Positions 1 to 15,253 of a stretch of DNA of 22,209 nt are shown here, piece after piece. The translations under genes and the position numbers were made by a program. Each line of letters starts with the position of its first letter. Position 1 is the first letter of the stretch. Origin of the DNA: Candidatus Bathyarchaeota archaeon (lineage in GTDB: Archaea > Thermoproteota > Bathyarchaeia > Bathyarchaeales > Bathycorpusculaceae); assembly GCA_963780185.1 (NCBI GenBank), contig CAWABA010000008.1, positions 1-22,209 on the forward strand, given 5' to 3'. The notes beneath the pieces are model-generated. The model was not told where the DNA came from. It worked only from the letters and a program-made list of their open reading frames with translations, and did not search any database.

Positions 1-83
1 GAATTCATGACAGATTCGTCCATGACCCAAAGGTTGTTGACGGAAAACAAGAATTTTGGTTCAAGCTGATAAAAACGTTGGAT

Positions 84-1230
84 TTATCTAATTCCGAATT
101 TTTCAGCCCATTCTTCGTTTAACTTTACTTCGTCGCCTGAAACCGAAGCTTTTCTGACTTGCAGCGCGTTACGAAGTCGCTTCTGGTTACGGGTCTTGGG
201 ATGCCGCTGTCAAGGTTGTTCTGCTGGTTAAGCTCATGGATCGGGATGTACCATGCGTCAATGCAGACTTTTTTGATGTCGTCGCCGCTGAAGCCTTCGC
301 TGAGTGTCGCAAGTTCATGCATGTTTACGTCGTCTGCAAGCTTGAGGTTAGGCATTTTCCGAAGAGAAATCTTGAACATTTCTTCCCGGGCATCCAAGTC
401 GGGCAGCGGAATCATTATGCGTTTGTCGAAGCGCCGAAGCATCGCAGAGTCAAGGCTCCACGGGCGGTTAGTGGCTCCCAACACAACTATTCTGTCGTCT
501 GCTTTACCCACTATGCCATCCATCATCTGAAGCATCTGTGTTAGAACCCGAGTAGAAACCGCAGATTCCTCGCCGGTTCTCTCCATCGCCCAGCGAGTCA
601 ACTTCATCAATGAAAATTATCGAGGGCTGATTTTTCCGCGCCGACTCAAACAACCCTTTGATGCGTTGCTCCGAGTCGCCGACCCATTTGATCATGACGT
701 CGGCGGCGCTTACGCTGAAGAAGGTGGCGTTGCATTCGGATGCGGCTGCTTTTGCAATCAGGGTTTTTCCGCAGCCCGGCGGACCAAACAGCAGAATCCC
801 TTTCCATGTTGGCATGCCTTTGAACAGGTCAACTCTGCGAAGGGGCAGAATAATTGCGTCTTCGATGGCTTGCTTAGCCGTCTGGAGGCCCGCGATGTCA
901 TCCCAGGAAACGTTGGGTTTCTCAGGCAAAATCATGGAGGAAACTTTGGATTGCAGCTCTTCCTCGTCTTTGTTGTCTTCTTTTGCTTGTCGCAGTTGGC
1001 GGAGGTCTTTTCGCGATGGATTTCAGTTGGTAGGCCCGCGAAAGGTATTGTTCGGCTCTTTCGGTGTAGAAGGTTTTCAACTGTTTATTGTCGGTGTATC
1101 GCACAACGGACATAAGCAGATCGAATGCCTGCAGGTACTTGCTGACTGCCTGCTCGGTTTTTCCTTCTGAATCGCATTTTGCGGCTTCGTTAGCTGCGTT
1201 CACTGCTAAATTGTACAGGGACGAGGACAA
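84..1230 (-). CDS. vps4: Vps4/CdvC-type MIT + AAA+ ATPase (~380 aa; apparent 1-nt frameshifts near 985, 590 and 170)
   Basis: Joined frames: MIT (AVNAANEAAKCDSEGKTEQAVSKYLQAFDLL...YTERAEQYLSRAYQLK); linker KDEEELQSKVSSMILPEKPNVSWDDIAGL; Walker A GPPGCGKT; pore loop KWVGDSE; Walker B IIFIDEVD; ATNRPW; LRRFDKRI; and, in another frame, the Vps4 C-terminal helix ALQVRKASVSGDEVKLNEEWAEKFGIR* ending at TAA 84-86. TTG start preceded by GGTG. Confidence 0.93.
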
Positions 1231-1264
1231 GAGCCGGCACCCATTAGCTTTAAGCTAACTCTTT

Positions 1265-1350
1265 GGGCATATAATAAATTTGTGAAACACTGGGGCAACT
1301 TAGCGCAAGCAGAAGTGCTGAGTTAGGGCAAGTTTTTTATCTTTAAGCCA
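1265..1350. promoter_or_regulatory. Divergent archaeal promoter region between vps4 and the ESCRT-III operon
   Basis: Minus-strand TTTATTATAT (~1269-1278) upstream of vps4; plus-strand TTTTTTATCTTTAAG (~1333-1347) about 20-35 nt before ATG 1369. Confidence 0.45.
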
Positions 1351-1368
1351 CCAACAATACGGTACGAG

Positions 1369-2002
1369 ATGTCACATATGCCAATAGGTGAAAAAATAAG
1401 GAACTTCGTGAAGGGCCCGCCGCTTGAAGACTTAGTCATCGACCTCAAAATGTACAACAAAGAAATCGGGCGGACACGGGACCAATACAAGAACAGGTCA
1501 ACCGCCATGTATGACCAAGCTAAAGAATGCTTGATTAAAGGTGACGATCACAGGGCAAAAATGTATGCTCAACAGTACATGAGCTGTGACAGGACAGCTT
1601 TTTCACTTGACATGTTCGTCATAAACATGGACAACCTAATCTTCGACCTTAACAATGCACAGTCAGTTGAAAACATCGGGTTAAGCCTCGGCAAAATAAG
1701 CAAATGCCTCGACAAACTAAACCTGCTTAAACAACGCGGCGTAGGCAAAGTCATGGGCAGAGTAAGCAGCCAAATGGAGAAAATCGGCTTCAAAACCGGA
1801 CAAATCTTTGACCAACTGAAAGATTACGAACCCTTCAACATTGAACCCGGCTCAGCGAAAGACCTAGACAAAAGTCATGGATAAAATGGTAAGCGAAGTC
1901 ATCGCTGAAGGACCAGCGTCAGGATTGCCCGAAGCAAAACTCACTGAGTTGCAAGCAGAAGAGGCAAGGCGTAAAAGGATCCAGCGCGGAAAGCACAAAT
2001 AG
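1369..2002 (+). CDS. ESCRT-III (Snf7-fold) protein, Vps2/24/46 (CHMP1-3)-like class, ~210 aa; one extra A at 1870-1873
   Basis: Helical hairpin with AKECLIKGDDHRAKMYAQQ, resembling the K-G-N/D-x-x-x-A-R/K-I-Y-A motif of Did2/CHMP1/CdvB. The +1 frame continues DKVMDKMVSEVIAEGPASGLPEAKLTELQAEEARRKRIQRGKHK* to TAG 2000-2002. Divergent from vps4. Confidence 0.82.
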
Positions 2003-2017
2003 TTTGAGGCGGTTGCT

Positions 2018-2614
2018 CTGTTCAAATCTAAGGATGATAACAAAAGAGATCTGTTGGATGCTTTAGATTTAGAAATAGAGGAACACACCAAGAAAAGCAG
2101 GGCACTAAAAGAGGAAAGCGCTAAAAACAAGGAAAAAGCCGCTGAGCTTGCTGAAGAAGACATGGATGACGCGGCGAAACGTCGGCTCGCAGTCTATTTG
2201 CTGTGTAGACAGTTGAGGACTAGAGAGGAAACGGTGATGGCTGATTTGGATGCGGCGCGGCTTCAGGTTATTATGCAGCCGGAGCACCTGACTTCTCAAA
2301 CAATCGACAAAGTCAACAAAGCACTTAAGGAGTCGGCGACTGAAAAAGACAAAACCGCGCAGGCATTCAACCGAATGTCATTCATAACCCAAGTGGGCAT
2401 GGAGCAGTCAGCAAGCGAACTTGAAGACTTCGGAATCCACCAGAAAAGCATAAACGAAGAATTTGAAAAACTCAAGGGAAAACAGGAGCCACCCGCTCCC
2501 AAAGCAAAGCCTCAGCCAATCGGCGAAAACGAGTTGCCCGAAGTCCCCGCCAAAGAGCCAGAGAAAAAGCAGGCGACGGAGGAAGAAAGGATTCCTGAAA
2601 AAGGTTTTAGCTAA
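2018..2614 (+). CDS. ESCRT-III protein, Vps20/32/60 (CHMP4-6)-like class, with a C-terminal MIM2 motif
   Basis: Charged helical protein (KEKAAELAEEDMDDAAKRRLAVY...ADLDAARLQV...SINEEFEKL), then a Pro-rich tail containing ELPEVP (2531-2548). Frame is open back to 2003; GAGG at ~2006 suggests a start near CTG 2018 (FKSKDDNK), while the ORF track starts at TTG 2054. Confidence 0.72.
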   Translation: MFKSKDDNKRDLLDALDLEIEEHTKKSRALKEESAKNKEKAAELAEEDMDDAAKRRLAVYLLCRQLRTREETVMADLDAARLQVIMQPEHLTSQTIDKVNKALKESATEKDKTAQAFNRMSFITQVGMEQSASELEDFGIHQKSINEEFEKLKGKQEPPAPKAKPQPIGENELPEVPAKEPEKKQATEEERIPEKGFS

Positions 2615-2615
2615 A

Positions 2616-3100
2616 TTGAGCGAGAACCTGACTGGCTCGAAAAACCATGGGTCTACACCAAACCCAAAGGTGAAGAAGCAGTTGCAAAGTGGAGAGAAAA
2701 CTGGAGTCGATTACGTTTTAGCGTTCGCGGAAAAAAAAAACATTTACGCGATAAGCCGGTTCGGATCTGCACCGCGAAAGCCCATTTCTGCAAACTCGAC
2801 CAAGCATCATTCGAGGACATAGTTGACTGCTTAATCACAGTAAACAGGCGAAGTGGCGAAGCAAACGTGGAAAAATGCTGGTGATATGCTGGCGTTCCCT
2901 GACAAGTGGGCGGACTTGACGGTTCAATTGGCAAAAGAAAAGAAGCAGCCGATAATCAACGGATCAAACGGACTCGTCGAATTGCATCCGCAAACCGATG
3001 CTTGCCAGAGAAAGAGCAGCAGCAAATCCTCAAACTCATCGTGAAGAAGAAAGCGGGTCACTGGGTTGACAAGAAAAAACTGGCTTTGCGGCTGAATTAA
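2616..3100 (+). CDS. vps25: ESCRT-II Vps25-like tandem winged-helix protein (~160 aa; several frameshifts, not intact in the ORF track)
   Basis: Joined frames: EPDWLEKPWVYTKPKGEEAVAKWRENW-DYVLAFAEKKNIYAIS-DLHRE-PFCKLDQASFEDIVDCLI-SKQAKWRSKRGKMLVICWRS-DKWADLTVQLAKE...LPEKEQQQILKLIVKKKAGHWVDKKKLALRLN*. This follows the Vps25 pattern WxxxVLxF / PF...L / W......IxWRxxxxW. Confidence 0.8.
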
Positions 3101-3104
3101 GTTT

Positions 3105-3728
3105 TTACGCGAGTTTCGTCGGCTCAGTAATTCCAGTCAAATCGATTGAAATTAAGTCAAGCCCAAGCCTGTACAGTTCGTTGAACAGTCGGGGCCTGAC
3201 TTGTTGGCTAATGAGTTCTTCCCGGTCGATCAGCAGGAACTCCTTGAAAGTCATGTTTTTCGCAATGTCGCGGAAAACGCTGAAACCAGCGGTCCCTCCC
3301 TAAGCCACTCCACCAGTTGTTCCCGAGTGAAACTGTTTTTGCCGCCACCACACGGGAAATGAATTGGGCGACGTTTTTCTCCATGTCCCCGTTTACCCTA
3401 AGCGTCGATCGTTCCGCTAAGCCCGATTTGGTAGCCGTCTTTCGTTATGGGACCGTGGTTTTTGGGGATTCCGAAGGCTTCCTGCCGCGGGCTAATATCA
3501 ACCCAGATTATTTCGTTGGTTCCTTTGGCAGCAGATGTTTTCCCGAAGAGCGAACACTCTCCATCGTGCCGCCCTTGTAAAAAATGGCTTTCTCAAATTC
3601 CTTGACGACGACTGCGCTTACGCCGCTTATCTTCGGGATATTTTTCGTTTGGGACATGCCAAATCAGCTCAGACGGAACGCGTCGGATTGCGTTCCCAAC
3701 TGACCACTTTTTTTCTGAACGGGCACAT
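3105..3728 (-). CDS. SPFH/Band-7 domain protein, YdjI-like (~205 aa; several frameshifts, missed by the ORF track)
   Basis: Joined frames: MCPFRKKVVSWER...PSELIWHVPNEKYPED-SGVSAVVVKEFEKAIFYKGG...GKHLLPK-TNEIIWVDISPRQEAFGIPKNHGPITKDGYQIGLSGT-TLRVNGD...FISRVV-GKNSFTREQLVEWLREGPLVSAF-RDIAKNMTFKEFLLIDREELISQQVRPRLFNELYRLGLDLISIDLTGITEPTKLA*. ATG at 3728, TAA at 3105-3107. Confidence 0.75.
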
Positions 3729-3829
3729 ACGGTAACCTACTTATGCTTGTATTAATCATTAATGGAAATTGCTTCAACAGGGTAACTTGTAACGTAGGGT
3801 TTAAGCCGCGGCTGTTTCCCGTCCGCCGT

Positions 3830-4923
3830 CTAGACACGCTAAATTTGCTTGGGAAATACCACCGTGTGATTGAGTCGTCGCCGATGACGCGCTTCGAAGT
3901 CTCAGTTTTCTCCATGTTACAGAGCACTCGCCGCGAATAGTCAACGGACCAGCCGTTGAGTAACGCAAGTTCTTCAGCCGTAACGCCGCCTTTTTGAAGC
4001 TTCACGTCTTTATCGACGATTTCTAGGGCTTTGCGGTCATCCAGCTTGAAAATCACGATTTTGTTTCCGTCAGGTTCACGTTCCACCCCTGAAATCCACC
4101 CGTCCTTCTGCAGCAAACTCAGGGATTTCTCCATGTCTTCCAACTGTATGCTGGTTAAGTCGGGATTGAGGTTTCGGTACTCGGCGAAGAACTCTTTAAG
4201 CCCAATGTAGGGTCCTTTCTGCTCTTCGATGGCGCGCGCCGCCAGCAGGGTTCGCACCCCGATTTTGCGGTAGTACTGCCCATGCTTGAGGGGGCTTTTC
4301 TTTTCGCTGTCCACAGACAACGCATACAAGCCACGCTTTTCACGGCTTTGTACATGTCTGGGTTTTCAGTCTCCAGAATCCGCAGAAGCTGGTTAAGAGG
4401 AACCTCAACGGCTAAAGAGCGGATGTGGGCGACGCGGTCGATATTGCGGAACTCATCCGTAAGCTTCGTGAGGAAAGCAAGTGCCGCTTCACTGTTGGGT
4501 TCAGCGCCAGCGGGGAACATGTCTCTTGTAGCTTCACTGACCGCGAAACATTTGGTAAGCAGAAGCGAATCAATGTACGCCAGCCCCTTTGGGTCCGTGT
4601 TCTTTTTGATTTCGAAATGCTGCGAGAACGTGATTGAGTCCCTCAGCCGCTCAAGAGCCTCCCTGCAGCTATGCAGCTTAGCTAAGAAGCTCTTTGTCGC
4701 CGCCTCGAAAAGCCACGTTTATGGCGAACGAGAGTTCTTGGTCGAGGCTGCTGATTTCGGAGACGGCTTGCACGATGGTGGCTTTGTCGTAGGTTTCCAG
4801 TTCTTTGGCGTTGGTCGGCATCCCGACCAGGTAGGCGCCAGCTTTCGTTGCGGCTTTTGTTGAGACGCTTATGGCGGCGCTTTGCCCCAACTGTTGAGCC
4901 CACCATGCAAGAGCAGCAATCAT
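3830..4923 (-). CDS. ESCRT-II Vps22/Vps36-like (EAP30 domain) protein with a ~190-aa N-terminal helical domain (~360 aa; frameshifts near 4680 and 4330, probably also near 3835)
   Basis: Track ORFs 4678-4923, 4155-4520 and 3664-4329 join into one protein. C-terminal half YYRKIGVRTLLAARAIEEQKGPYIGLKEFF...IQLEDMEKSLSLLQKDG...GGVTAEELALLNGWSVDYSRRVLCNMEK...TRWYFPSKF matches the EAP30 double winged helix. Likely stop is TAG 3830-3832, one indel out of frame. Confidence 0.78.
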
Positions 4924-5102
4924 GGCGTTTTCACATCAGGTAACTTGGGGAGTACCCCTTTTAAGGTTTAGTGTCAATCGACCGCTGGCAGAAGGCGGAG
5001 AAAGTTTTCTGGTCTCTGGAGGGGCTGAAGCGGACGCATGAATGTATGAAAAAGCATTTATGCGCTTAGACATCACACATAGTAGCATTTGGGGTTGCGG
5101 TA

Positions 5103-7272
5103 TTGATAATCAAAAGCATCAGCGACATGGCTAAACAGATGAATGTTGATGAGTCAGCCGTGTACAACGAGTTAGACCCAGTCATAGCCCGCCTGCAAAA
5201 CACAGGAGCCAAATACTTCCTCAGTCGGCAGCCAAACGGCGGCGGCAAACTGCTAATTGTAACGGCGGGGGACATCGCGTATGTTTTGTCAGGCGCCAAC
5301 ATGCGTTCGCTTATGGATTTGGGGACTCATTTCAGCGTCACCGCAGGCGACGTGGCTTGGCTGCTAAGAGAGCTGGTTGCCAGCGGCGCAGTCGGCGTTG
5401 AAGTTCAAGATTACTACATGAACGCGAAGAACAGGCCGTCGGTTAAAGCGTGGTTTGAGCCTGAAGCGGTGATAGTCGGCGAAAAAGCCACCTTAAACAT
5501 CGAAGTTAACAGTCCATGCGAAGTCCTCGAACCCAAAATCACTGTTGAGGCGCCGTCGGGGCTAGAGCTTGAAGAGGAACCTAAGACGCCGTCGAAGATT
5601 TTCAAGGGCACATTCATGGAGAAATACGAGTTCGCCGCCAACGCTTACGGAGACCTCAAAGTAGGCGGAGGCCTGGGCGGAACCGTGGACGGCGTCGAAT
5701 TCGACAACCCCTTCTACTCTGTACTCAAGGTGCTGCCGCTGCCTCCGCAGACTGGTGGTTTCGCAGAGCAAAAGCAGCTACGAAGCAACCTATCAGGGGT
5801 CGTTTAGGCTGACGCTTGACATCGCCAACAGCGGAGCTGGAGCCGCCCAAAACGTGGAACTTAAAGGCTTAGAGAACCACCCAGAGTTTGAAGTTTGGGA
5901 AACCACCAAGATAGGCAACATCTCATCGCATGGAAGCGTCAAACACATGATAGCGCTTAAGCCCAAGAAAAGCGGCATCTTCCAGCTGCAGGACCTCTCC
6001 GTGAGCTTTGAAGACCTCGCAGGGAAACCGTTCAGCACAGCTATTCCCAGCTTTGAAGTGCAGGTGACTACGCCGCAGCCTAAACTCAAAGTGGAATTCA
6101 TCTACCCCGAAGTCATCGACCAAAAACGGGTTTTCCCGCTTACCCTCAAAATCAGCAACGTCGGCGACGGCGACGCCAAAAACGTCACGTTCACGTTGCC
6201 CATCGACCACAAGTACATACAGTCAGGCATCGTCGACTGCAACATACCAAAACTGAAAAGCAACCAAACCGAAGAACTCATCGTTAGACTGCAGGCACCT
6301 GAAAGAGATGTGCTGGAAGTCCCCGACTTAAACGTTGAATACGACGACAACGAAGACAACACAATCGCCCAAAAAGTGTTCGGCGCCGTGATTCCTATCC
6401 GCGCCTCAAAAACAGCGGAGAAACCTGTGGTCAGAGACGAGTTTTCCAAGTTGCAGTGGCCGTTCACCCAGAACGCACGCGTCGGCGGGCAATACGACAT
6501 CGTGGAGGAAATCGGCGAAGGAGGATTCGCCAAAGTCTACCGTGTCAGACGCCTCAAATTCAACGAGGAATGGGCGCTGAAAGCGCTGAAGCTGGATTAC
6601 GTGACGGTGCCCTCTGTGGAGGAAAGCTTCGTGGAGGAGGCAAGAATCTCGCAGAAGCTGCGGGAAGACCACATCGTCGGCGTTCAATACGTGGATGTCC
6701 AATGCGTAGGCGACGTCGAGTTCCCCTACATCATAATGGAGTACATCCGAGGCGGCACGCTTAAGGACAAGCTTAAGGAGCCGCTGGACCTTATGACCTG
6801 CGCCGAAATCATGAAGGACATGTGCAGCGCGCTGCTCTACGCGCACCAGCAAGGCGTCATACACTTTGACGTTAAACCCTCCAACATCTTCTACGACGAC
6901 GACAAACAATTCTGGAAACTCGGCGACTTCGGCTTAGCCAAATACATAACGACCAGCAACAACATTTCCCCGCGGGGCAGCCTACCCTACATGGCGCCCG
7001 AGGTGAAGCAGAGGCGGGGAACATCCAAAAGCGACATTTACTCGCTGGGACGGGTCTGCGCAGAAATCCTCACGGGAAGCCCAGACGGCGACGTCTCCAA
7101 AGCCGACAAAAGCTACCCGCGGGAAGCCCAGCAGAAAGTACGCGAGTTCACAGGCATCGTACAGAAAATGTTGAACCCCAACCCAGCCGAGCGCCCGACC
7201 ATCGTTGAAATACAAAAGGTGTTCCTTAAGTCAACCACTTGGTCAAGCAACGAAAAAAGAAGAGCGATCTGA
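5103..7272 (+). CDS. Hanks-type Ser/Thr kinase with N-terminal winged-helix (PCI-like) region and three Ig-like (CARDB/BatD-type) domains (~720 aa; frameshift near 5750)
   Basis: Kinase motifs GEGGFAKV, ALK, HFDVKPSN, DFG, GSLPYMAPE, DIYSLG, RPT. Ig repeats LTLDIANSGAGAAQNV and LTLKISNVGDGDAKNV. ORFs 5103-5807 and 5755-7272 join at ...VLPLPP-LVVSQS...; no signal peptide or TM helix seen. Confidence 0.88.
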
Positions 7273-7278
7273 TAAAAG

Positions 7279-7821
7279 TTGACTGACACCTTCACATTGA
7301 GAAAACGGCAGACCACCTGCAGCGAATGCTCAAGCGAAATAGAAATCCCCATAACCTCAACAGCCACACGCATCAAATGCAAATGCGGCGTAGTCTACGA
7401 GTACAACCCTGCCGTAGAGCTTCTGCCCTACTTGATGTTGCAGGAGGAAAACAAGCCGCCGTCCGAGTACCGTTTAACGGCAAGCGTGAAAATCGGGCGG
7501 GAAGACAACAGCGACTACCTCACCATAACCAGCCAAGATGACCCCTCCATAAAACAGAAGTTTTACATAAGAAACTGCTACGTCTCCCGAAACCACGCGA
7601 AAATAGCCGTAGAGGACCAGTTCACCCTCCAAAAGCAGGGCGGCGCCAAGATACTGTTAAAAAAGAAATGCATGCTGGAAGACTGCGGCAGCACAAACGG
7701 CACCTCCGTGAACGACCACCTCCTCAAACCCCGCGAGCCAAAAGAGCTTAAACACAACGACCGCATCACGTTGGCGCCCAACAGCAACTTCCCAATGATA
7801 ATCGCCTTCAAAGAACGCTGA
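7279..7821 (+). CDS. Zn-ribbon + FHA (phosphothreonine-binding) domain protein
   Basis: N-terminal CSEC...CKC; FHA signatures IGR, VSRNHA and LEDCGSTNGTSVN; starts 6 nt after the kinase stop. Confidence 0.9.
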   Translation: MTDTFTLRKRQTTCSECSSEIEIPITSTATRIKCKCGVVYEYNPAVELLPYLMLQEENKPPSEYRLTASVKIGREDNSDYLTITSQDDPSIKQKFYIRNCYVSRNHAKIAVEDQFTLQKQGGAKILLKKKCMLEDCGSTNGTSVNDHLLKPREPKELKHNDRITLAPNSNFPMIIAFKER

Positions 7822-7835
7822 AAACCGCGCCGCCG

Positions 7836-9029
7836 CTACTTCGCAAGCAACGCTTCAATGTTCTTGCGCAAGCCGTTCTTAGAGAAGAATTTTTCTCCAT
7901 CCAAAGTCAAGTATCCCACGACGCTGTTGCGGCGCATGCCGTGCAGCAGAAACTTCTTTGTAAGGCCCAAACTTAACCCGAGGTTGGACGCCAAATCAAC
8001 CAGCGGAACCTCGTCTTTTTCGCTGAGCACCTGCAGCATTTTCTTTTCGGTTTCCGCTACGAAGTCTTTTGCAGCGGGGTCACCTACCGCGTCAAGGTCG
8101 CTTGCCTCAAGCATCTCGATTAAGGCGCGTCTAGCCCTAGACAGCGCCAAACGCGGGGTTGCAAAAGCAGCGGCGATTCCGCCGTGACCCAGAAGCAACG
8201 TAGCTATGCCCAGCAGCAACATGCCGTAGCCCAAGTAGTTTTCGATGGAAACCGTAGCCCACACGTTGGCGATGTCTAACCCAGCGATGGAGACGCCTAC
8301 CGCGAAGGCGATAACCCAGAGGCTGCGGAACAACCATTTTTCCTGAAGCAAAAGAGGCTTAGCCGACTTAAGCTTCACAACGTACTCTTTAACGACGATG
8401 CTGACGACTGCGAAGACGCCGAAGCTGATAACGAACACGCCCGCCAACATCACGGCAAACCCAACGTAGTTCGCCACGGTTTGCGTTGCCCACTCGCCCG
8501 CCGTCACGGAACCCAGCAAGAACATGGCAACCCCTGCGGTTACAGCCAGAATCTTGTTCAGCATTGAAAACCCGTGTTTGCTACCTACAACGTAGGTGGT
8601 GATGAGCCCAACTGTGCCCACGACTGCGGCGGCTAACCCGAACATCGTCAGCCCGTAGCCAAGGTAGTTTTCAACCGTGAATTTAGCCCAGTTTGCGTTT
8701 GCCGCTGAACCCACCAAAGCCACAGCAACTCCAGCGGCGAAGATGTGCAGGTTTTGGAACAGTTTCTGCTGGGGAACCTCGATGAAGCGAGGCGGCAGCC
8801 ACCTTGGGGTTCTTCGCTCTCTGGCTAAGATTGTTTTGAAGACGCCTTCAACCAACCAGAACGCGCCTAAAACGAGCAGGATTGTTCCAGCAGATTGGAC
8901 GCCGAAGCCCACGTAGTTTAGGGTGGTGTAGTAATAGTTGTTTTTGAAGAGGTATGACCCTGCAGCCGAGAAAACTATGCCTGCGACTAAGGCGTATAAA
9001 CCGTTAAGCAGGGTCTTTTGCAGTTTCAA
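7836..9029 (-). CDS. Multi-pass membrane protein (four repeated TM hairpins) with a C-terminal PCI-like winged-helix domain
   Basis: About 8 hydrophobic segments; motif T/S-x-x-NY-[LV]-G-[FY] occurs four times; soluble tail MLQVLSEKDEVPLVDLASNLGLSLGLTKKFLLHGMRRNSVVGYLTLDGEKFFS. Confidence 0.75.
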   Translation of the reverse strand: MKLQKTLLNGLYALVAGIVFSAAGSYLFKNNYYYTTLNYVGFGVQSAGTILLVLGAFWLVEGVFKTILARERRTPRWLPPRFIEVPQQKLFQNLHIFAAGVAVALVGSAANANWAKFTVENYLGYGLTMFGLAAAVVGTVGLITTYVVGSKHGFSMLNKILAVTAGVAMFLLGSVTAGEWATQTVANYVGFAVMLAGVFVISFGVFAVVSIVVKEYVVKLKSAKPLLLQEKWLFRSLWVIAFAVGVSIAGLDIANVWATVSIENYLGYGMLLLGIATLLLGHGGIAAAFATPRLALSRARRALIEMLEASDLDAVGDPAAKDFVAETEKKMLQVLSEKDEVPLVDLASNLGLSLGLTKKFLLHGMRRNSVVGYLTLDGEKFFSKNGLRKNIEALLAK

Positions 9030-9053
9030 GGCTTTTACTCACTCATCCCTCTG

Positions 9054-10583
9054 TTAACGCTTGAGTGTATGAAACTCTATACATATAACGTTTAAGTGAA
9101 AAACCTCGTCGTGGGCGGGTTCAGGCAAAAACCTCTTCAGGCGGCGAGTAACAAAAACAGCGATTACGATTATCCACCCCACCGCCAGAGCAACCGCCAC
9201 AACTTCAGCCGCCCCAAGTATGGTCTGTTCCACGGAGCCAACTGAACGGGTAGTTGAGCCGCCGCTGGCTGCGCTCTTGGTTGGGGTAGGCGTCGGCTGG
9301 TTTTGCTGAATAATTGGGGTGCTTGTCGGTGTCGCTGTAGCTTGGATCGGGGTGACGTTTGACTGGGAAGGAGACCAATTGATTGTCCACTGGGTTGACG
9401 GCGCCGCAGAATTTGGCTGCGCCAGAATCGGCAGGTAAGTGACTGTTCCCAGATTATAGTTGTATTTGGAGTCGTAGATTGACTGGCTAATGGCTTGGGT
9501 GTCCGGGGTGCCCCACCAGTTGTTAGCGGCGTTAACTGCGCCCTGAGCGTTCTGCAGGCAAATGCTGTTGCTAACGTAATTTTCCAAGTTGTTGTTGCTT
9601 ACAGTGCATGGATCATCCAGCGCAATTGACACGTTGCAATAAACGATGGTGTTGCCTTGGATGGTGACGCCGCTGCTTGCCTCAATCCCAGCAGTTGAAC
9701 AGTTGTAAACCAAATTGTTTTCGACAGTAATCGTTTTCCCAAGGTAGCTCCCCACGTCAATGCCCGTTTCACAGTTAACTACGGTGTTACCTGAAATTAC
9801 CATGCCATCTTCGTCGGCTCCACCTGTTATCCCATTGCTGTAGTAGCTGACCCCGAAGTCGTAGTAGTTGCCGGGGTAGCCTGGACCGATTATTTGGTTG
9901 CCGTTGACTGAGGGGAAGCCGCCGTCTATGTAAACGCCTTTTGTGACAACGTTGCTTTGGATTGTGGGGGTTCCGCCTGTGACTGTGACACGCGATATTG
10001 TGTTGCCGCTAACCTCAGGTGACCCCGCCGCCACAGTAAGCCCTATTATGTATGAGTAGTATCCGTCGCCGAACAAGTTGCCTGTTATGACTGGGGAGCC
10101 GCTGTAGACCTTTATACCGCCGACTTTTACTTCGTCGTCGACGGTTATCGGGTTGCCAACTCTGTTGGAGTCAATTTTCGGCGAAACACCAGTTATTTTG
10201 ATGAGGTAGAGCCCGTCTGTGTGCTCGATTATGGAGCCTGAACCTGCGCTTTGGCTCCAGCTGCTGCTTGAAGGCATAAAGTCAACTTCGCCTCCGCCCT
10301 GAAAGGTAATCGGGTTAGAATCGGTTCCTAACGCCTGAAATGTCCCGTTGACTTGAAGAATGTAGCCGTTGAAGTTCACTGTGGCACCAGCCTCAACGGT
10401 TAGAGTTGCCCCGCGGTTAACTGCGACAGGCCCGTTGATGTTGTAGGGGCTGCTCTCCGCGGTCCAGGTGGTGTCGGAGTTGATTATGCCGTTGAAAACA
10501 GTGGACGCCATAGCCATGTCACGCAGCGGCAAGGCACATAGCGCAAGAGCAATCAACAGAGCAACAGGCAAAGCCTTGTTCAT
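9054..10583 (-). CDS. Secreted right-handed parallel beta-helix (NosD/pectin-lyase-like) surface protein with C-terminal membrane anchor; paralog 1
   Basis: Signal peptide; DTTWTAESSPY N-cap; repeated IxxNxI beta-helix rungs; NNWWGTPD...SIYDSK; Thr/Pro-rich linker; TM followed by RRLKR. The true stop may be slightly earlier (~9121) if there is an indel. Confidence 0.85.
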   Translation of the reverse strand: MNKALPVALLIALALCALPLRDMAMASTVFNGIINSDTTWTAESSPYNINGPVAVNRGATLTVEAGATVNFNGYILQVNGTFQALGTDSNPITFQGGGEVDFMPSSSSWSQSAGSGSIIEHTDGLYLIKITGVSPKIDSNRVGNPITVDDEVKVGGIKVYSGSPVITGNLFGDGYYSYIIGLTVAAGSPEVSGNTISRVTVTGGTPTIQSNVVTKGVYIDGGFPSVNGNQIIGPGYPGNYYDFGVSYYSNGITGGADEDGMVISGNTVVNCETGIDVGSYLGKTITVENNLVYNCSTAGIEASSGVTIQGNTIVYCNVSIALDDPCTVSNNNLENYVSNSICLQNAQGAVNAANNWWGTPDTQAISQSIYDSKYNYNLGTVTYLPILAQPNSAAPSTQWTINWSPSQSNVTPIQATATPTSTPIIQQNQPTPTPTKSAASGGSTTRSVGSVEQTILGAAEVVAVALAVGWIIVIAVFVTRRLKRFLPEPAHDEVFHLNVICIEFHTLKR

Positions 10584-10624
10584 GCAACCACCCGCTCACC
10601 TATGGCGCAGTTTGGTTTAATAGG

Positions 10625-11983
10625 TTACGCTTTTTGGCTGCTTTTCGTTTTCAGCCGCCGCCTAACAAACACAACTATCACAACAGCCCAAGCAAACGCC
10701 AAGGCAACGGGCACAATTTTTGCAAGCTGCAGGATAACGGATTCAACCGAGTTCTCTGGACCCGACGAGCCAGCGCCGATAGAGTTTTGCCACTGGTTAG
10801 GCGTAAGAGTAGGCGTGGCTGTTGGATGAAAGGTGGCAGTGGATTGGGGGGAAGTTGTTTGAGGCGTGGGCGTAGGTAAGGTTACGGGCACAAGCGGGCT
10901 GGACGGAGCCTCGGAACTGGGCTGGTTCAGGATTGGAGTGTATGTTACTGTTCCCAAGGTGAAGTCGCTTTTCGAGTCGTAGATTGATTGGCTTATAGCT
11001 TGAGTGTCTGTGGTACCCCACCAGTTGCCAGATGCATCCACATTAGAGCTGCCCGTCAAGTAGACGCTGTATTGGGTGTTCCCGTAAATGTTGTTGTGTA
11101 CGATAGACGCTGAACCCGCACATTGGATTCCTACCTTGTTGCCTGTTATAGTGTTGCCCTCAACTGTCCCACCGCCAACAGAGATTCCGCATTTATTATT
11201 CGCAACGTAGTTCTGCTGAATCACTGCTGAACCCAAACTTTGAATCGCCACGTCAACACAGTTGATAACCGTGTTCCCATTGAACGTTGCTTGCCCATTT
11301 AATATAACTGAAATCCAACCCCCATTAACGACGTTGTTTGATAAAGAGGCGCTATCTCCCGCAGTGACCACATAAGTCCACCTAGTCGTGTCGAACTGGT
11401 TATTCGTAACTTTAGAGCCCCCGTTTGCCAAAATGGCGCCACTTATGGGTGGATTGTCCACCACGTTATCCGAAATTAAGGGAGACCCGCTTACGATATT
11501 TATCGATGTGTCAACTGTGTTGTTAAAAGTGTCCCTGCTGATTTTCGGGGAGCATCCTTGGATGGAAACCGAGGCGGTTTGGAAAAAAGCGTTCTCTATA
11601 ATACTTCCTGATGCTGTTTGTTCATTCCAACTTGTGCTGGAAGGCATGAATTCGATGGTGGGATTGCACTGGCTCGTATATTGAATAGGAGAGAGAAAGA
11701 CAATATTATTGTCACTCGTTCCCTGGGCTATGAGTGTGCCGTTGATTTCCATGTAGTATCCTGCAAGATCAACGGTTGTTCCCGGCGCAATAGTCAAAGT
11801 TACCCCCGCCACCACTCCAACCGCACCAGTCAGCGTATAGGGACTACCCGCAGACGCCCAAACCGTGTCAGAAGTTACCAACCCGCCAACGCTTGTGGAA
11901 GCATGAACATTGCTCACGTAAGCAGATCCGCACAGGATCAAAACAACCATCAGAGAGGCGGAAACCAGTTTTTTCATGTACAA
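10625..11983 (-). CDS. Secreted beta-helix surface protein with C-terminal membrane anchor; paralog 2
   Basis: Signal peptide ending VHA; DTVWASAGSPY; beta-helix rungs; GNWWGTTD...SIYDSK; TPTP linker; TM followed by RRRLK. Confidence 0.88.
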   Translation of the reverse strand: MYMKKLVSASLMVVLILCGSAYVSNVHASTSVGGLVTSDTVWASAGSPYTLTGAVGVVAGVTLTIAPGTTVDLAGYYMEINGTLIAQGTSDNNIVFLSPIQYTSQCNPTIEFMPSSTSWNEQTASGSIIENAFFQTASVSIQGCSPKISRDTFNNTVDTSINIVSGSPLISDNVVDNPPISGAILANGGSKVTNNQFDTTRWTYVVTAGDSASLSNNVVNGGWISVILNGQATFNGNTVINCVDVAIQSLGSAVIQQNYVANNKCGISVGGGTVEGNTITGNKVGIQCAGSASIVHNNIYGNTQYSVYLTGSSNVDASGNWWGTTDTQAISQSIYDSKSDFTLGTVTYTPILNQPSSEAPSSPLVPVTLPTPTPQTTSPQSTATFHPTATPTLTPNQWQNSIGAGSSGPENSVESVILQLAKIVPVALAFAWAVVIVVFVRRRLKTKSSQKA

Positions 11984-12015: not shown

Positions 12016-13416
12016 TTACTGCTTACCGCGTGCTTTTCGCTTTAGCCGGCGCCTGACCACGACAAAGATAACGATTGCCCATCCAACTGCGAGGACAATT
12101 GGCACCGTTTCTGCAAGCTTCAGGATGACGGATTCAGTGGAGTTTTCTGGACCGGAAGAGGAACTGCCGATGGAGGATAGCCAACCTTGGGTTGAAGTCG
12201 GCTGAACATGCAGCGTGGGAGTTGCGGTTGTAGCTGGCTGGTTAGTTGGATTGGTGGTTGTTGAAGATTGAGTGAGGGTGTTCAAGTTGACGAGCGGGGT
12301 TGAAGGCGCCTGCGAATCAGCTTGACTTAGGATTGGGTTGAAGGTTACGGTACCCAAGTTGAAATCGTCTTTGTTATCGTAAATTGATGCCTTAATCGAT
12401 GTGCTGTCGGTTGTTCCCCACCAGTTATCGGTTGCGTCAACGTTCAAAGGCGAGGTAAGATAGATGCTGTTTTGGGTGCTTCCTTGAATGTTGTTACTTT
12501 TGATGGTTATGGAAAAGTCGGATGTGCTAATCCCTGCAGGTGACTTTATCCCGACATTGTTGTTTATTATAGCGTTGTGTCGAATAACTCCGATGCCAGT
12601 CACCCCAAAACCATTATTGGACATATAATTTTGCTCGATAATTACCGATGCACTATTTGATGCTACGGCAGCATCTTTACAATTCGTAATCGTATTTCCT
12701 GTTATCTTCGCTTCGCCGGAAGCCTGGATGCCTTGCCAACAATTGTTTACAACATTGTTTTCCACTGATGCGTTCTCAGACACCTGCATCCCGTAGATGA
12801 AGGGAGAGGAATCATGGACGAAATTGTTTGAAATAATTGGGGAACCTGCGGCAATGATGGCGCTTCCTCCGCTTCCAGCTGAGATGTCGTTGTTCACTAT
12901 CGAGGGGGATCCACTTAAAACGTTCAGGGGAGACTGAGATGGGTGAGTAAAAGTGTCACGGGTTATTTCAGGGGAGCAACCAAGTATTGAGACGCTCGTT
13001 GCGTTAAAAACCGAATTTTCAATCACGCATCCTGAAGCCGTAGGAGGATACCAACTTGTGCTTGAGGGCAAGAATTGAATTTGAAATTTCGTCTGAGACT
13101 GATAGGCAGAGGCAGCATCAGTTGAAAAAAATATGTTACTACTGCTTGTTCCTTGGGCGTCGAGGGTGCCGTTAACCTGCAGGTAGTAGATACCAAAGTC
13201 AACCTCAACTCCTGGTACTATGGTTAAAGTTACGCCTGCTTCCACGCCTACGGGTCCTATTAGCTTGTAGGGGCTGTCTGCTTGGGTCCAAGTGGTGTTT
13301 GAAGTCATCAATCCGCCGACGTTTGTAGAAGCATGAACATTGCCCATGTTGCCTGCTAATAAGAAACAGCCAAACAACGCCATTAGCAACAGGATCGGGC
13401 AAGCAAGCTTCTTCAC
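12016..13416 (-). CDS. Secreted beta-helix surface protein with C-terminal membrane anchor; paralog 3
   Basis: GTG start; signal peptide ending VHA; NTTWTQADSPY; DNWWGTTD...SIYDNK; Thr-rich linker; TM followed by RRRLKRK. Confidence 0.88.
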   Translation of the reverse strand: MKKLACPILLLMALFGCFLLAGNMGNVHASTNVGGLMTSNTTWTQADSPYKLIGPVGVEAGVTLTIVPGVEVDFGIYYLQVNGTLDAQGTSSSNIFFSTDAASAYQSQTKFQIQFLPSSTSWYPPTASGCVIENSVFNATSVSILGCSPEITRDTFTHPSQSPLNVLSGSPSIVNNDISAGSGGSAIIAAGSPIISNNFVHDSSPFIYGMQVSENASVENNVVNNCWQGIQASGEAKITGNTITNCKDAAVASNSASVIIEQNYMSNNGFGVTGIGVIRHNAIINNNVGIKSPAGISTSDFSITIKSNNIQGSTQNSIYLTSPLNVDATDNWWGTTDSTSIKASIYDNKDDFNLGTVTFNPILSQADSQAPSTPLVNLNTLTQSSTTTNPTNQPATTATPTLHVQPTSTQGWLSSIGSSSSGPENSTESVILKLAETVPIVLAVGWAIVIFVVVRRRLKRKARGKQ

Positions 13417-14446: not shown

Positions 14447-14577
14447 GTGTGCAGTAAAGGTGTGCAATAAGAGCCGTAAACTGTGCAATAAGCGCTTAAC
14501 TGTTTGTGCATGGTGTTATTGATGGTGTTATACAGTATGGGCGCATGGTGTTATTTGCACACTTTTTGTAACACCAT
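14447..14577. repeat. Iteron-like cluster of short direct and inverted repeats
   Basis: TGTGCA(A/G)TAA at 14448, 14461 and 14482 (plus TGTGCA at 14505), inverted TTGCACAC at 14555; ATGGTGTTAT at 14510, 14522 and 14545, inverted TAACACCAT at 14569. Confidence 0.8.
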
Positions 14578-15218: not shown

Positions 15219-15253
15219 AGCGTGAGCATGCACTTAAGAGGATGAATTGACCT

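Follow-up and report, generated by a model that had tools for sequence, protein, structure and literature searches.

Introduction

Asgard ESCRT gene clusters encode Vps4, ESCRT-III proteins of the Vps2/24/46 and Vps20/32/60 classes, Vps25, and Vps22/EAP30 (PMC9192718, PMC10936438). Makarova et al. 2024 (mBio, PMC10936438) also described archaeal ESCRT loci that encode phosphatases and Ser/Thr kinases as well as FHA and SPFH proteins, and proposed 'phosphorylated protein sorting' for the euryarchaeal ESCRT systems. Phosphorylation-linked ESCRT is therefore not new in general. A preliminary description of the locus studied here had raised the question of whether its arrangement is undescribed; the general idea of a phospho-ESCRT has this precedent, while for the narrower combination of a sequence-level ESCRT-II in a TACK lineage with a kinase, an FHA protein and an SPFH protein we found no report in the literature.

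Results

Composition of the cluster and comparison with described systems

The window, which is the whole stretch of 22,209 nucleotides that was analysed, is a complete 22-kb contig (C8) of a Bathyarchaeia MAG (93% complete). A cluster of nine genes occupies positions 84-9029. The genes were pieced together from stop-to-stop fragments scanned with Pfam, and fragments without a Pfam match were named via the intact homologues of locus L015; both sources agree with the names given in the preliminary description.

90..1254, minus strand: Vps4 ATPase (MIT, AAA, lid and Vps4_C), from Pfam on three frames
1369..1997, plus strand: ESCRT-III protein 'E3a', Vps2/24/46-like, from Snf7 and L015 homology
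2018..2614, plus strand: putative ESCRT-III protein 'E3b', Vps20/32/60-like, from L015 homology; unbroken
2624..3100, plus strand: Vps25-like ESCRT-II subunit with tandem winged helix, from L015 alignment
3110..3737, minus strand: SPFH/Band-7 protein, TM-less, from Band_7 and L015 alignment
3804..4935, minus strand: EAP30 (Vps22/36)-like ESCRT-II subunit, from Pfam EAP30 and structure
5103..7272, plus strand: soluble Ser/Thr kinase with wH-like module, Ig-like domains and C-terminal kinase domain, from Pfam and AF2
7279..7821, plus strand: Zn-ribbon and FHA protein (FHA 51.2 bits); unbroken
7836..9029, minus strand: 8-TM membrane protein with four internal repeats and a cytosolic tail of ~105 aa, from hydrophobic segments

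The cluster thus combines an Asgard/eukaryote-type ESCRT-II (EAP30/Vps22-like and Vps25-like subunits) with ESCRT-III proteins of two classes and a Vps4 of its own. Genetically coupled to this set are a soluble Ser/Thr kinase with Ig domains, an FHA protein with a Zn ribbon and an SPFH protein that lacks a TM helix. As in the Asgard clusters, the Vps25 and EAP30 homologues are recognizable at the sequence level, with Asgard EAP30s as the nearest outside matches, and the two classes of ESCRT-III have tails that appear MIM1-like and MIM2-like. The Vps25 gene is co-directed with the ESCRT-III genes and the EAP30 gene lies in a separate unit, as reported for Asgard in PMC10936438. Unlike in Asgard archaea, the host belongs to the Bathyarchaeia (TACK) and has CdvABC, the EAP30-like gene pairs with an SPFH gene rather than with Vps28/Vps23, its product has a family-specific N-terminal domain, and kinase and FHA genes are built into the cluster.

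The euryarchaeal 'Main', 'Halo_FHA' and 'Meth_adaptin' systems are likewise non-Asgard ESCRT loci with FHA and SPFH proteins, and their Ser/Thr kinases carry Ig-like (adaptin-appendage-like) and wH/PCI-like domains (PMC10936438, also for the following comparisons). However, they contain only structural ESCRT-II look-alikes (arCOG09748 wH) and arCOG08177, whereas Vps25 and EAP30 are detected here at the Pfam level. Their kinases are described as membrane-anchored (TM-Ig-...-PCI), whereas the present kinase is soluble (wH-Ig-kinase). The fusion partner of FHA is a CdvA-like domain in those systems and a Zn ribbon here. Among the euryarchaeal systems, SPFH, FHA and kinase mark separate clades, whereas all three occur in one Bathyarchaeia cluster. 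Phosphatases are present in the euryarchaeal loci but absent from the window, although a Metallophos gene adjoins the kinase in one relative (G237). In bacterial PspA-YdjI, an SPFH gene is also paired with ESCRT-III-family machinery, as cited in the same study, but the partner of the present SPFH gene is the EAP30-like gene of ESCRT-II instead of PspA.

Vps4 and ESCRT-III

Vps4 was recovered as three Pfam pieces: MIT (922-1254, 49.1 bits), AAA (504-1022, 93.3 bits), and AAA with AAA_lid_3 (125-616). Together they cover residues 8-400 of the 401 residues of the intact L015 Vps4 at 69-85% identity per piece, and the translation contains Walker A (GPPGCGKT) and Walker B (IIFIDEVD). The cluster shares ESCRT-III and an MIT-domain Vps4-family ATPase with the TACK CdvABC system, but its Vps4s are distinct from CdvC: they show 58-60% identity to one another versus 37-38% to the host CdvC, and they reach 291-340 bits (L015 Vps4, 315.6) on the NCBIfam CdvC equivalog model (cut-off 650) versus 523 for the host CdvC.

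E3a is 79% identical to its L015 counterpart. Its Snf7 score is 19.4 bits in the window (1327-1884; cut-off 27.3), 27.3 in L015 and 49.1 in L018, and its best PDB sequence matches are the CdvB/Vps2-like 9s9j_A (3.4e-5) and CHMP1B (0.014). Alignment of its relatives revealed a C-terminal LSELxxxRxxL motif, which we tentatively take to be MIM1-like. E3b (2018-2575) shows 60% identity to residues 1-180 of L015 E3b (E 1.5e-67). It had no match among PDB sequences, and its L016 orthologue matched Snf7 at 6.5e-5 (23.1 bits, under the cut-off). Three of the four orthologues, including that of the window, carry a C-terminal (E/Q)LPEVP, presumably a MIM2-like motif by comparison with that of CHMP6. The 23.1-bit match of one orthologue, the position in the cluster and this motif weakly suggest that E3b belongs to ESCRT-III.

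ESCRT-II subunits and SPFH protein

The Vps25-like product aligned with residues 6-162 of the 164-residue L015 protein; for 2630-3094, the identity is 27% (E 1.1e-14). The window's own pieces gave no Pfam match; the orthologues of L015, L016, L018 and L019 scored 35.6, 33.2, 29.1 and 44.3 bits, respectively, on Pfam ESCRT-II (PF05871, cut-off 27). L015 Vps25 matched the Odinarchaeota Vps25 structure 7pb9_A with an E value of 7.6e-20, versus 0.36 for human 3cuq_C.

The EAP30-like protein consists of a helical N-terminal domain of ~190 aa followed by tandem winged helices. Pfam EAP30 was matched at 3664-4365(-) with 37.7 bits (cut-off 26.8), and the protein is 78-80% identical to the intact relatives P0002 and P0003 (363-374 aa). 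The AF2 model of P0003 (mean pLDDT 83.8) had the human and yeast ESCRT-II chains 3cuq_A, 2zme_A and 1u5t_A as top Foldseek matches, and VIA superposed residues 198-352 on 3cuq_B with Z 10.8 (rmsd 5.5, 148 aligned) and on 1u5t_B with Z 10.3. A profile of the family matched 123 of 1.84 billion representatives, ~25 of which cover most of the profile. Since the cluster contains a single EAP30-family subunit, its ESCRT-II may differ in shape from the eukaryotic Y.

The EAP30-like gene is followed directly by the SPFH gene, and the two are adjacent and read in the same direction in the window, L015, L016, L017, L018 and L021. Band_7 was matched with 17.3 bits by the window piece 3105-3299(-), under the cut-off, and with 40.3 bits by the L015 orthologue. 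The L015 homologue identified the stretch 3126-3670, the frameshift-aware alignment of the gene spans residues 5-212 of 213, and no hydrophobic helix was found in the L015 protein. The protein had been described as YdjI-type, a subtype that the mixed Band_7 and Band_7_1 scores do not support.

Kinase, FHA protein and membrane protein

The kinase spans residues 7-726 of the 728-residue L015 kinase and matched Pkinase with 153 bits (5755-7272) in addition to the Ig-like TRAP_beta/CARDB domains; no TM helix was found. The N-terminal 235 aa were modelled by AF2 with a pLDDT of 81.2 as a strand, three helices and two strands (4-59), four helices (61-112) and a beta sandwich (119-219), whose Foldseek matches include the GGA2 GAE domain 3mnm_A (3e-4) and the gamma-adaptin ear 1gyu (8e-4). 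The translation contains GxGxxG, a VAIK-type K, HFDVKPSN, DFG and APE. The FHA gene lies directly downstream, and the two genes are adjacent in the window, L015, L016 and L022. In four FHA orthologues, C14, C17, C34, C36, G73-R74, S103, H106 and N140-G141-T142 are invariant. With the phosphopeptide-contact residues of FHA conserved and the kinase and Walker motifs present, these parts look active, as judged from sequence.

The 8-TM protein carries NY[LV]G[FY][GA] in each of its four repeats (residues 38, 121, 187 and 264) and had no match in Pfam, NCBIfam, PHROGs, PADLOC or Atlas, apart from a sub-threshold HTH_24 match of its tail (E 0.0029, 17.6 bits; cut-off 21.9). The tail is possibly a winged helix, and its earlier description as PCI-like is not borne out. 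No homologue of the protein was found in the relatives' loci, and it is not a conserved member of the cluster. In G237, the gene beside the kinase (L022:4727-6019) encodes a multi-TM protein whose C-terminal HTH matches HTH_IclR (2.8e-6), with no significant similarity to the 8-TM protein (E 0.6). Whether the 8-TM protein is a member of the system is uncertain.

Linkage and distribution in Bathyarchaeia

The other eight genes occur together and unbroken in three further Bathyarchaeia genomes (G259, G313, G237). The four genomes keep the set in three different orders and orientations, in which the sub-blocks E3a-E3b-Vps25, EAP30-SPFH and kinase-FHA are conserved; the expectation that kinase, FHA and SPFH genes stay syntenic with Vps25, EAP30, ESCRT-III and Vps4 genes was borne out in 3/3 of the other genomes with this strong form. 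In G259, seven genes form a co-directional run with gaps of <=120 bp inside a chromosomal contig of 1.68 Mb, and the neighbouring genes are of housekeeping type (CobN/ABC-transporter/Mg-chelatase on one side, Pyr_redox/EF-Tu-like on the other). As the preliminary description had noted for the stretch in view, no ubiquitin or ESCRT-I gene was found in the window, nor beside the cluster in this intact chromosomal relative. Genome-wide Pfam searches for ubiquitin, E2 (UQ_con), UEV/Vps23 and VPS28 also gave no match in this 93%-complete genome, a weak negative with controls positive for only one of the four families.

Among 401 genomes of the class, the kinase N-module was found as part of a full kinase in exactly the four cluster genomes. 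The EAP30-like gene was found in 0/40 other genomes of the genus, 1/103 of the family and 9/401 of the class. Family f20 has a kinase that is built differently (DUF7662, without the wH-Ig module), and no FHA gene was found on the short contigs. The system is thus rare and dispensable, and it could be of use under particular conditions such as stress or virus attack.

This patchy, accessory spread would also fit a membrane repair or defence module triggered by stress or viruses, in which the kinase senses damage or infection: an inducible response to envelope damage or an abortive-infection response, like bacterial PspA with its SPFH partners. The short contig, the low-GC right arm of the window (0.36-0.42) with its many orphan genes, the SPFH-ESCRT-III link of PspA/YdjI (cited in PMC10936438) and the resemblance of the kinase domain to PADLOC defence kinases (mad6, 177.9 bits; PD-T4-6) point in this direction. 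However, the PADLOC matches concern generic kinase and AAA domains only and no known system was matched; six of the eight L015 cluster proteins have no PADLOC match, and the flanks in G259 are not a defence island. We know of no described repair or defence system that contains ESCRT-II. We regard this explanation as unlikely, at perhaps one chance in five.

A second ESCRT system beside CdvABC

The host genome carries a canonical CdvB-CdvA-CdvB-CdvC locus on another contig (C9), where CdvA scores 37.8 bits on PF18822 (cut-off 30). Since this locus lies elsewhere in the genome, the cluster is a second ESCRT system beside the host CdvABC division genes. The host is a Bathyarchaeon with its own CdvABC, not an Asgard archaeon. 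In TACK archaea, division involves ESCRT-III and Vps4 (PMC10936438), and the Vps4 gene and the pair of ESCRT-III genes in the cluster might serve as an auxiliary Cdv-like machinery for cytokinesis under some conditions. Nevertheless, the genome keeps a complete cdv locus, the cluster lacks CdvA, and the cluster is missing in nearly all close relatives, so it cannot be the division system of the lineage. An alternative division role is accordingly improbable.

Frameshifts in the window

The indels suspected earlier are present in the deposited sequence. Frameshift-aware alignment to L015 located ~22 single-base frameshifts in bases 1-5751: three in Vps4 (near 996, 584 and 168), two in E3a (near 1876 and 1958), none in E3b, ~6 in Vps25, ~7 in SPFH, three in EAP30 (near 4677, 4327 and 3828) and one in the kinase (near 5751), the counts being approximate for the low-identity genes. 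So many frameshifts in 5.75 kb, away from homopolymer runs, might reflect genuine decay of a cluster that is dead in this organism. However, the alignment revealed no in-frame stop, and protein identity within the frames is high (up to 85%). No frameshift was called in FHA and long unbroken ORFs follow 5751, a local burst that fits a poor consensus. Moreover, both sites that lie well inside an independent short-read contig (4687 and 1874) lack the extra base there: one contig is identical to the window over 4573-4740 (0 mismatches) except for the base missing at 4687, and the other, covering 1874, has 17 mismatches. Each correction comes from one low-depth contig (depth 2.5-2.9), in one case from a relative of ~89% identity. 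The frameshifts therefore look like assembly errors, and we consider a pseudogene cluster to have about one chance in ten.

A mis-binned contig of Asgard or other foreign origin, or a mobile element alien to this Bathyarchaeon, is very improbable. In favour of it are the separate 22-kb contig, a cluster GC of 0.49-0.53 versus a genome mean of ~0.46, and nearest non-family ESCRT-II relatives with Asgard names (Thor-, Odin-, Baldr-, Njord-, Frey-/Jord-, Sifarchaeia). Against it, Bathyarchaeia chromosomes contain orthologous clusters (NCBI names the G259 kinase and Vps25 'Candidatus Bathyarchaeota archaeon'), an 883-bp duplicate at 94% identity ties C8 to C9, the composition is inside the genome's range (tetranucleotide correlation of 1-9100 with the remaining genome 0.862, against a background of 64 chunks with a mean of 0.92 and a 5th percentile of 0.84), and no relative of the window was found in viral_contigs and no PHROG match among ten window proteins, a set that leaves out the frameshifted cluster genes.

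Discussion

We give roughly even odds to the reading of the cluster as a true accessory ESCRT machinery in Bathyarchaeia, gated by phospho-threonine and second to CdvABC, with frameshifts that are assembly errors. In such a machine, the SPFH protein, presumably co-transcribed with the EAP30-like subunit, would mark or organise a membrane patch. The Ig domains of the kinase would bind targets, whose threonines the kinase would phosphorylate, and the FHA protein would read the phospho-threonine and bring or activate ESCRT-II. Vps25 would then nucleate the Vps20-like E3b, with which E3a would co-polymerise, and Vps4 would, via its MIT domain, engage the MIM-like tails to remodel and disassemble the ESCRT-III polymer. 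Membrane would bud or undergo scission in the direction away from the cytoplasm, so that vesicles are released or proteins are sorted at the cell membrane, and routine division would not be the task. If the kinase, FHA and ESCRT steps are as proposed, phospho-threonine would select or gate as ubiquitin and ESCRT-I do in Asgard archaea and eukaryotes. The preliminary suggestions that a kinase/FHA pair may replace ubiquitin tagging, and that the system serves membrane repair, vesicle release or antiviral remodelling, are likewise hypothetical. A Bathyarchaeon with the usual Cdv genes also holds a rare second membrane-remodelling cluster, in which a kinase accompanies an SPFH protein and a reader of phospho-threonine.

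Gene content of the cluster and its conservation in Bathyarchaeia

The cluster at bases 84–9029 is real and conserved. When stop-to-stop pieces of the window were scanned with Pfam, Vps4 (MIT, AAA, and lid) was found over three minus-strand frames, together with weak matches to Snf7 and Band_7, an EAP30 match above the cut-off, a strong Pkinase match with Ig-like TRAP_beta/CARDB, and FHA. A tblastn search with the proteins of the intact cluster in another Bathyarchaeia genome (G259; locus L015) placed all eight genes on the window (Vps4, the ESCRT-III gene E3a, the putative second ESCRT-III gene E3b, Vps25, SPFH, the EAP30-like gene, kinase, and FHA) and reproduced the positions in the preliminary description. 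That description also contained a ninth gene, for a multi-TM protein with a PCI-like tail, of which the multi-TM part stood, while the tail gave the weak match listed here:

7836–9029, minus strand: 8-TM protein with four repeats; tail with a sub-threshold winged-helix match only

In G259, a fully intact copy of the cluster lies about 1.0 Mb into a contig of 1.68 Mb. The gene order is FHA, kinase (728 aa), SPFH, EAP30-like, Vps25 (35.6 bits), E3b, and E3a; these seven genes are co-directional with gaps of 0–120 bp, and Vps4 is divergent. The loci of relatives were obtained by profile search of genomes, and the full gene set was present in four genomes: the host, G259, G313, and G237, the last with the set split across contig ends. 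Three different gene orders were observed, in which the sub-blocks E3a-E3b-Vps25 (with Vps4 divergent), EAP30 then SPFH, and kinase then FHA were constant. The linkage of the kinase, FHA, and SPFH genes to ESCRT genes, on which the preliminary description had made its reading depend, is thus retained in the three relatives.

With the profile of the relatives, the EAP30-like gene was detected in 9 of 401 genomes of the Bathyarchaeia class, the host among them. The cluster is accessory, being found in none of the 40 other members of the genus and in one of 103 of the family, and the N-terminal module of the kinase occurs as part of a full kinase solely in the four genomes with the full set (4/401). 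Searches of genome and metagenome contigs, with queries among the EAP30 piece of the window, protein P0005, and alignment A1, returned no related locus, and the related-locus search found no relative on viral contigs.

Five of seven genomes of the Bathyarchaeia family f20 were positive. They include a more divergent version of the cluster, with Vps25, E3b, E3a, Vps4, a kinase with DUF7662, EAP30, and SPFH, in which no FHA gene was seen up to the contig ends. A second kind of f20 locus ('type 2') contains Snf7, Vps4, Vps25, a Vps25-like fusion, and EAP30 adjoining JAB-like and ThiF (E1-like) genes:

L019 (G049:C6:14000-33000), 2851–11640: EAP30 (339 aa), Snf7, Vps4 (447 aa), and Vps25 (44.3 bits); further genes for a protein of 373 aa whose N-terminus is Vps25-like, another EAP30 (231 aa), an ORF of 87 aa, a JAB-like protein (weak, E 0.0015), and a ThiF/E1-like protein (147.5 bits)

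The type 2 Vps4 is 41–47% identical to the Vps4s of the kinase-type clusters. No Pfam match to ubiquitin was obtained in the genome that carries this locus.

The identity of the window proteins to those of G259 is uneven: 69–85% for Vps4, 79% for E3a, 60% for E3b, 47–56% for the kinase, 46% for FHA, 35–46% for SPFH, 33% for EAP30, and 27% for Vps25, some of these values being lowered by frameshifts. The window EAP30 is 78% identical to the metagenome proteins P0002 and P0003. The ESCRT-II/SPFH block of the window is inverted relative to G259, and variants of the cluster may have exchanged this block.

The window is the entire contig C8 of an archaeal MAG of 2.75 Mb (13 contigs, 93% complete). 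The contig starts just beyond the 3' end of the Vps4 gene, and the assembly holds nothing to the left of base 1. A Bathyarchaeia host agrees with the source names of the orthologous proteins ('Candidatus Bathyarchaeota archaeon') and orthologous clusters are contained in other Bathyarchaeia chromosomes. C8 shares an 883-bp stretch with contig C9 of the same assembly (C8:13534-14415 and C9:39898-40780, 94% nucleotide identity). Tetranucleotide usage of bases 1–9100 correlated with the rest of the genome at 0.862, which is low yet within the background spread (64 chunks of 9 kb, mean 0.92, 5th percentile 0.84).

Frameshifts in the window

Frameshift-aware protein-to-DNA alignment called about 22 single-base indels between bases 168 and 5751 (Vps4, 3; E3a, 2; E3b, 0; Vps25, about 6; SPFH, about 7; EAP30, 3; kinase, 1; none in FHA). 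Neither in-frame stops nor homopolymer context were observed, and beyond base 5751 the ORFs are long and uninterrupted. Low-depth short-read contigs from two public DNA runs derive from the same or a near-identical organism, several of them matching the window with 0 differences; these runs contain only about 7% of sampled words, and the parts they leave uncovered are uninformative. Two frameshift sites fall well inside a short-read contig, and in both cases the contig omits one base: base 4687 in a contig that has no other difference over 4573–4740, and base 1874 in a contig that differs at 17 further positions. Because both informative sites lose the extra base, the indels are read as consensus errors of the assembly, each read-level correction being given by a single contig of depth <3. 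The indel correction envisaged in the preliminary description was accordingly obtained at these two sites.

The ESCRT-II subunits

Vps25 proteins are recognized by a profile match over the curated cut-off (Pfam PF05871, cut-off 27) and tandem winged helices. The orthologues in G259 and three other Bathyarchaeia loci scored above this cut-off (L015, 35.6; L016, 33.2; L018, 29.1; L019, 44.3 bits). The window's own frameshifted copy gave no Pfam match and was assigned via L015 (27% identity, E 1.1e-14). The L015 protein matched the crystal structure of Odinarchaeota Vps25 (7pb9_A) at E 7.6e-20 and human Vps25 at only 0.36. The G259 protein carries the automatic NCBI annotation 'vacuolar protein-sorting-associated protein 25'; a Bathyarchaeia Vps25 gene is therefore already in the databases, apparently undiscussed.

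For the EAP30/Vps22/Vps36 family (Pfam PF04157), which is recognized by a profile match and ESCRT-II-type tandem winged helices at the C-terminus, the window piece scored 37.7 bits (cut-off 26.8); its relatives have 363–405 aa. In the AF2 model of the related protein P0003 (pLDDT 83.8), tandem winged helices are preceded by a helical N-domain. The top five Foldseek matches of the model were all ESCRT-II chains (3cuq_A, 1.2e-4), and it aligned to 3cuq_B (VIA) with Z 10.8, rmsd 5.5, and 148 aligned positions. The N-terminal helical domain gave generic helical-bundle matches only, the best of which (Z 11.6) is under the helical-bundle noise level of the tool. The family is small: of 1.84 billion representatives, 123 matched at E<=1e-3; the matches at <=1e-30 numbered 19, and about 25 cover most of the profile. 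Matches confined to the C-terminal half bore Asgard names (Njord-, Frey-/Jord-, Baldr-, Odin-, and Sifarchaeia) in five clusters looked up; among five full-length clusters looked up, the single named one was Bathyarchaeota. A phylum-level profile search gave six non-self matches (E 7.7e-6 to 4.2e-4, 41–62 profile positions), five of them on the last winged helix, which are weak and were left out of the member count.

Eukaryotic ESCRT-II (Vps22:Vps36:2 Vps25) has two EAP30-family subunits, of which Vps36 contains a GLUE/PH domain that binds ubiquitin and lipid, whereas the cluster has a single EAP30-family gene in the window, L015, and L016. No Pfam match to PH/GLUE was obtained in the cluster at these three loci.

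ESCRT-III, Vps4, and the separate cdv locus

ESCRT-III proteins are recognized by the Snf7 profile (PF03357) and a C-terminal MIM for the MIT domain of Vps4. E3a belongs to this family: its orthologues scored 49.1 bits (L018) and 27.3 bits (L015, equal to the cut-off of 27.3), and the window copy 19.4 bits. It resembles CdvB/Vps2 and CHMP1B, and its tail is presumably a MIM1. E3b is a putative second paralogue; only its L016 orthologue matched the Snf7 profile, at 23.1 bits, which is under the cut-off. Its place between E3a and Vps25 favours the assignment, as does a C-terminal LPEVP motif, which we take to be close to the MIM2 of CHMP6 and which is conserved in three of the four E3b orthologues. 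Neither E3b nor SPFH had sequence relatives in the PDB.

Vps4 (ESCRT-IV) is defined by an N-terminal MIT domain, one AAA+ domain, a lid, and Vps4_C. The window protein contains MIT (49.1 bits), AAA, and lid, and the L015 protein also Vps4_C (25.5 bits, cut-off 21.3). In the PDB search, Cdc48/p97 dominated the matches and no placement was obtained.

On contig C9 of the host, consecutive genes encode CdvB, CdvA (PF18822, 37.8 bits), CdvB, and CdvC, a Bathyarchaeota layout that appears in Table S2 of Makarova et al. 2024 (PMC10936438). The cluster Vps4 is 38% identical to the host CdvC, while the cluster Vps4s of three lineages are 58–60% identical to each other. Against the CdvC model of NCBIfam (cut-off 650), the score was 523 bits for the host CdvC and 291–340 bits for the cluster Vps4s (L015, 315.6). 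Pfam detected no CdvA in the cluster of the window or L015. The CdvABC division system of TACK archaea needs CdvA in the locus and a Vps4 that is the CdvC equivalog, and the cluster has neither. It is a second ESCRT system, separate from the actual cdv locus of the host, which contains CdvA and lies on C9.

Kinase, FHA, SPFH, and membrane proteins

The kinase retains all catalytic motifs, but HFD replaces HRD. No hydrophobic helix was computed for its L015 orthologue. The Ig domain is similar to many Ig folds, GAE/adaptin ears among them, and filled both fold searches meant to place the first 113 residues. Secondary structure and sub-threshold PCI/HTH matches (E 0.018–0.1) hint at a winged-helix fold for these residues, and hhalign aligned this module to the second winged helix of EAP30 with a probability of 33% (E 4.6e-4). 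The same ~113 residues form a free-standing protein of 112–122 aa in two genomes of family f22 (L041:9532-9900 in G054 and L042:4528-4866 in G094), encoded in an unrelated setting among housekeeping genes (TIM, FBPase, ARMT1-like) and adjoining a gene for a beta-helix surface protein.

FHA domains are recognized by the profile and by conserved GR, SxxH, and NG loop residues. The cluster FHA scored 51.2 bits (cut-off 20.7); G73-R74, S103, H106, and N140-G141, which presumably read phospho-threonine, are invariant in all four orthologues, and the four zinc-ribbon cysteines are kept. The FHA domain follows the four-cysteine Zn ribbon, with no further domain after it. The SPFH protein (~213 aa) has Band_7 as its sole domain match, at 40.3 bits in L015 (cut-off 23.6); the window piece scored only 17.3 bits because of the frameshifts.

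The 8-TM protein had no homologue in the relatives' loci and no Atlas match. Beside the kinase-FHA pair of G237 (L022:3815-6019) are genes for a calcineurin-like phosphoesterase (Metallophos, 90.5 bits), possibly the phosphatase that matches the kinase, and for a multi-TM protein of 430 aa that has an HTH at its C-terminus. The latter has the same architecture as the 8-TM protein, to which it has no significant similarity (E 0.6).

Ubiquitin and ESCRT-I

The ubiquitin-ESCRT pathway of Asgard archaea and eukaryotes comprises ubiquitin, E1/E2, and ESCRT-I (UEV/Vps23, Vps28) linked to ESCRT-II. The preliminary description had seen no ubiquitin or ESCRT-I, which was borne out in the 22-kb window and around the G259 cluster, in stretches of 20 kb and 13 kb that reach ~8–12 kb from it. 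Across the host genome, the Pfam models for ubiquitin (PF00240), UQ_con (PF00179), VPS28 (PF03997), and UEV (PF05743) gave no matches at E<=0.01, which is a weak negative, since the genome is 93% complete and three of the four families had no match in any control genome. In five other carriers, searches for ubiquitin and UQ_con found nothing except one 19-bit E2-like match in G076.

Other genes of the window

Right of the cluster, the window contains the following:

9054–10583, minus strand: right-handed beta-helix/NosD-like protein
10625–11983, minus strand: right-handed beta-helix/NosD-like protein
12016–13416, minus strand: right-handed beta-helix/NosD-like protein
13774–14361, minus strand, with 13517–13735: 195-aa protein, Arrestin_N-like (E 4e-5, 24.1 bits, cut-off 24.9), C-terminal zinc ribbon
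20354–20497 and 22055–22206: direct repeat of ~150 bp, 84% identity, extending to the contig end

In each of the three NosD-like paralogues, a signal-like helix is present at the N-terminus and a TM anchor at the C-terminus, together with a short basic tail. In G259, a related protein of 1163 aa is encoded directly next to Vps4, and beta-helix genes also flank the G076 loci (L017) and the free-standing winged-helix gene in G054. Since beta-helix genes are common in the host genome, this link may be a coincidence, or it may point to cargo.

The Arrestin_N-like gene lies in the 883-bp stretch with a second copy on C9, and a third paralogue (26% identical) lies ~6 kb from the canonical cdv locus (L023:14622-15224). 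In eukaryotes, arrestin-fold adaptors feed ESCRT sorting, and the pairing of an arrestin-like gene with ESCRT genes may therefore not be chance.

The right arm (14500–22209) has a GC content of only 0.36–0.42, and its genes matched no Pfam, PHROG, NCBIfam, or PADLOC family except for one weak HVO_A0114 match. The arm may be mobile or of foreign origin. No integrase gene could be recognized in it; 16972–18534, considered as a candidate, found no support in the four collections.

Discussion

ESCRT-II (Vps22/36, Vps25) has been treated as a feature of Asgard archaea and eukaryotes, with TACK archaea having reduced CdvABC only (PMC10936438, PMC6393860); the TACK systems so described include those of Bathyarchaea (PMC10936438). 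Literature searches turned up no description of ESCRT-II, Vps25, or EAP30 from Bathyarchaeia, although a mention is possible in Table S2 of PMC10936438 beyond the part available. In the accessible part of Hatano 2022 on Asgard ESCRT (PMC9192718), FHA and SPFH are absent and 'kinase' occurs just in a reference. Euryarchaeal ESCRT loci contain kinases (TM-Ig-PCI), phosphatases, FHA-CdvA fusions, and an SPFH protein, from which Makarova et al. inferred sorting of phosphorylated proteins (PMC10936438). The kinase, FHA, and SPFH features are thus already known, separately, from euryarchaeal systems; what appears to be new is that a TACK lineage has a core of ESCRT-II, ESCRT-III, and Vps4 of Asgard type, in a single cluster with all three.

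The cluster was also compared with the individual euryarchaeal types. 'Halo_FHA' has FHA fused to a CdvA-like C-terminal domain (arCOG13166; PMC10936438), whereas the cluster FHA has a Zn-ribbon partner. The marks of 'Meth_adaptin' are GOLD, ProX, adaptin-appendage proteins (Ig+TBP), and an SPFH protein that also has a coiled coil and a Zn ribbon (PMC10936438); in the cluster, the SPFH protein of ~213 aa shows Band_7 alone, the adaptin-ear-like Ig domains are within the kinase, and Pfam gave no match to GOLD or ProX in the window and L015. The 'Main' clade has arCOG09748 and arCOG08177 proteins alongside Vps4 and ESCRT-III (PMC10936438). Neither DUF3568 nor Cas2-like had a Pfam match in the cluster of the window or L015.

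Domain content and gene linkage suggest a phospho-gated mechanism. Phospho-threonine marks read by FHA would gate ESCRT-III assembly, which would be nucleated by ESCRT-II on a membrane patch organised by SPFH, and the outcome would be budding or sorting rather than division. The main rival reading of the same gene set is that the cluster is a stress or defence module. It is also conceivable, though improbable, that the kinase is itself an ESCRT-II subunit, whose N-terminal winged-helix pair fills the Vps36 position of the missing second EAP30-family subunit. ESCRT-II would then carry its own phospho-writer, and the FHA protein would close a feed-forward loop. If this were true, then, together with the f20 ThiF/JAB cluster, it would mean that the full ESCRT-II machine is older than the Asgard-TACK split and that, before the ubiquitin version became fixed in eukaryotes, it was wired either to ubiquitin-like tagging or to phosphorylation.

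For annotation, the cluster is a warning, as relatives are labelled 'hypothetical protein' or wrongly named. For the biology of Bathyarchaeia, it places ESCRT-II, at the sequence level, within a TACK class and beside an ordinary Cdv system. With eight soluble proteins, the cluster offers a compact natural system in which to study ESCRT-II recruitment without ubiquitin. It also adds a data point to the question of origin: a complex sorting ESCRT may already have existed in the archaeal ancestor, or Bathyarchaeia may have taken it over from Asgard archaea.
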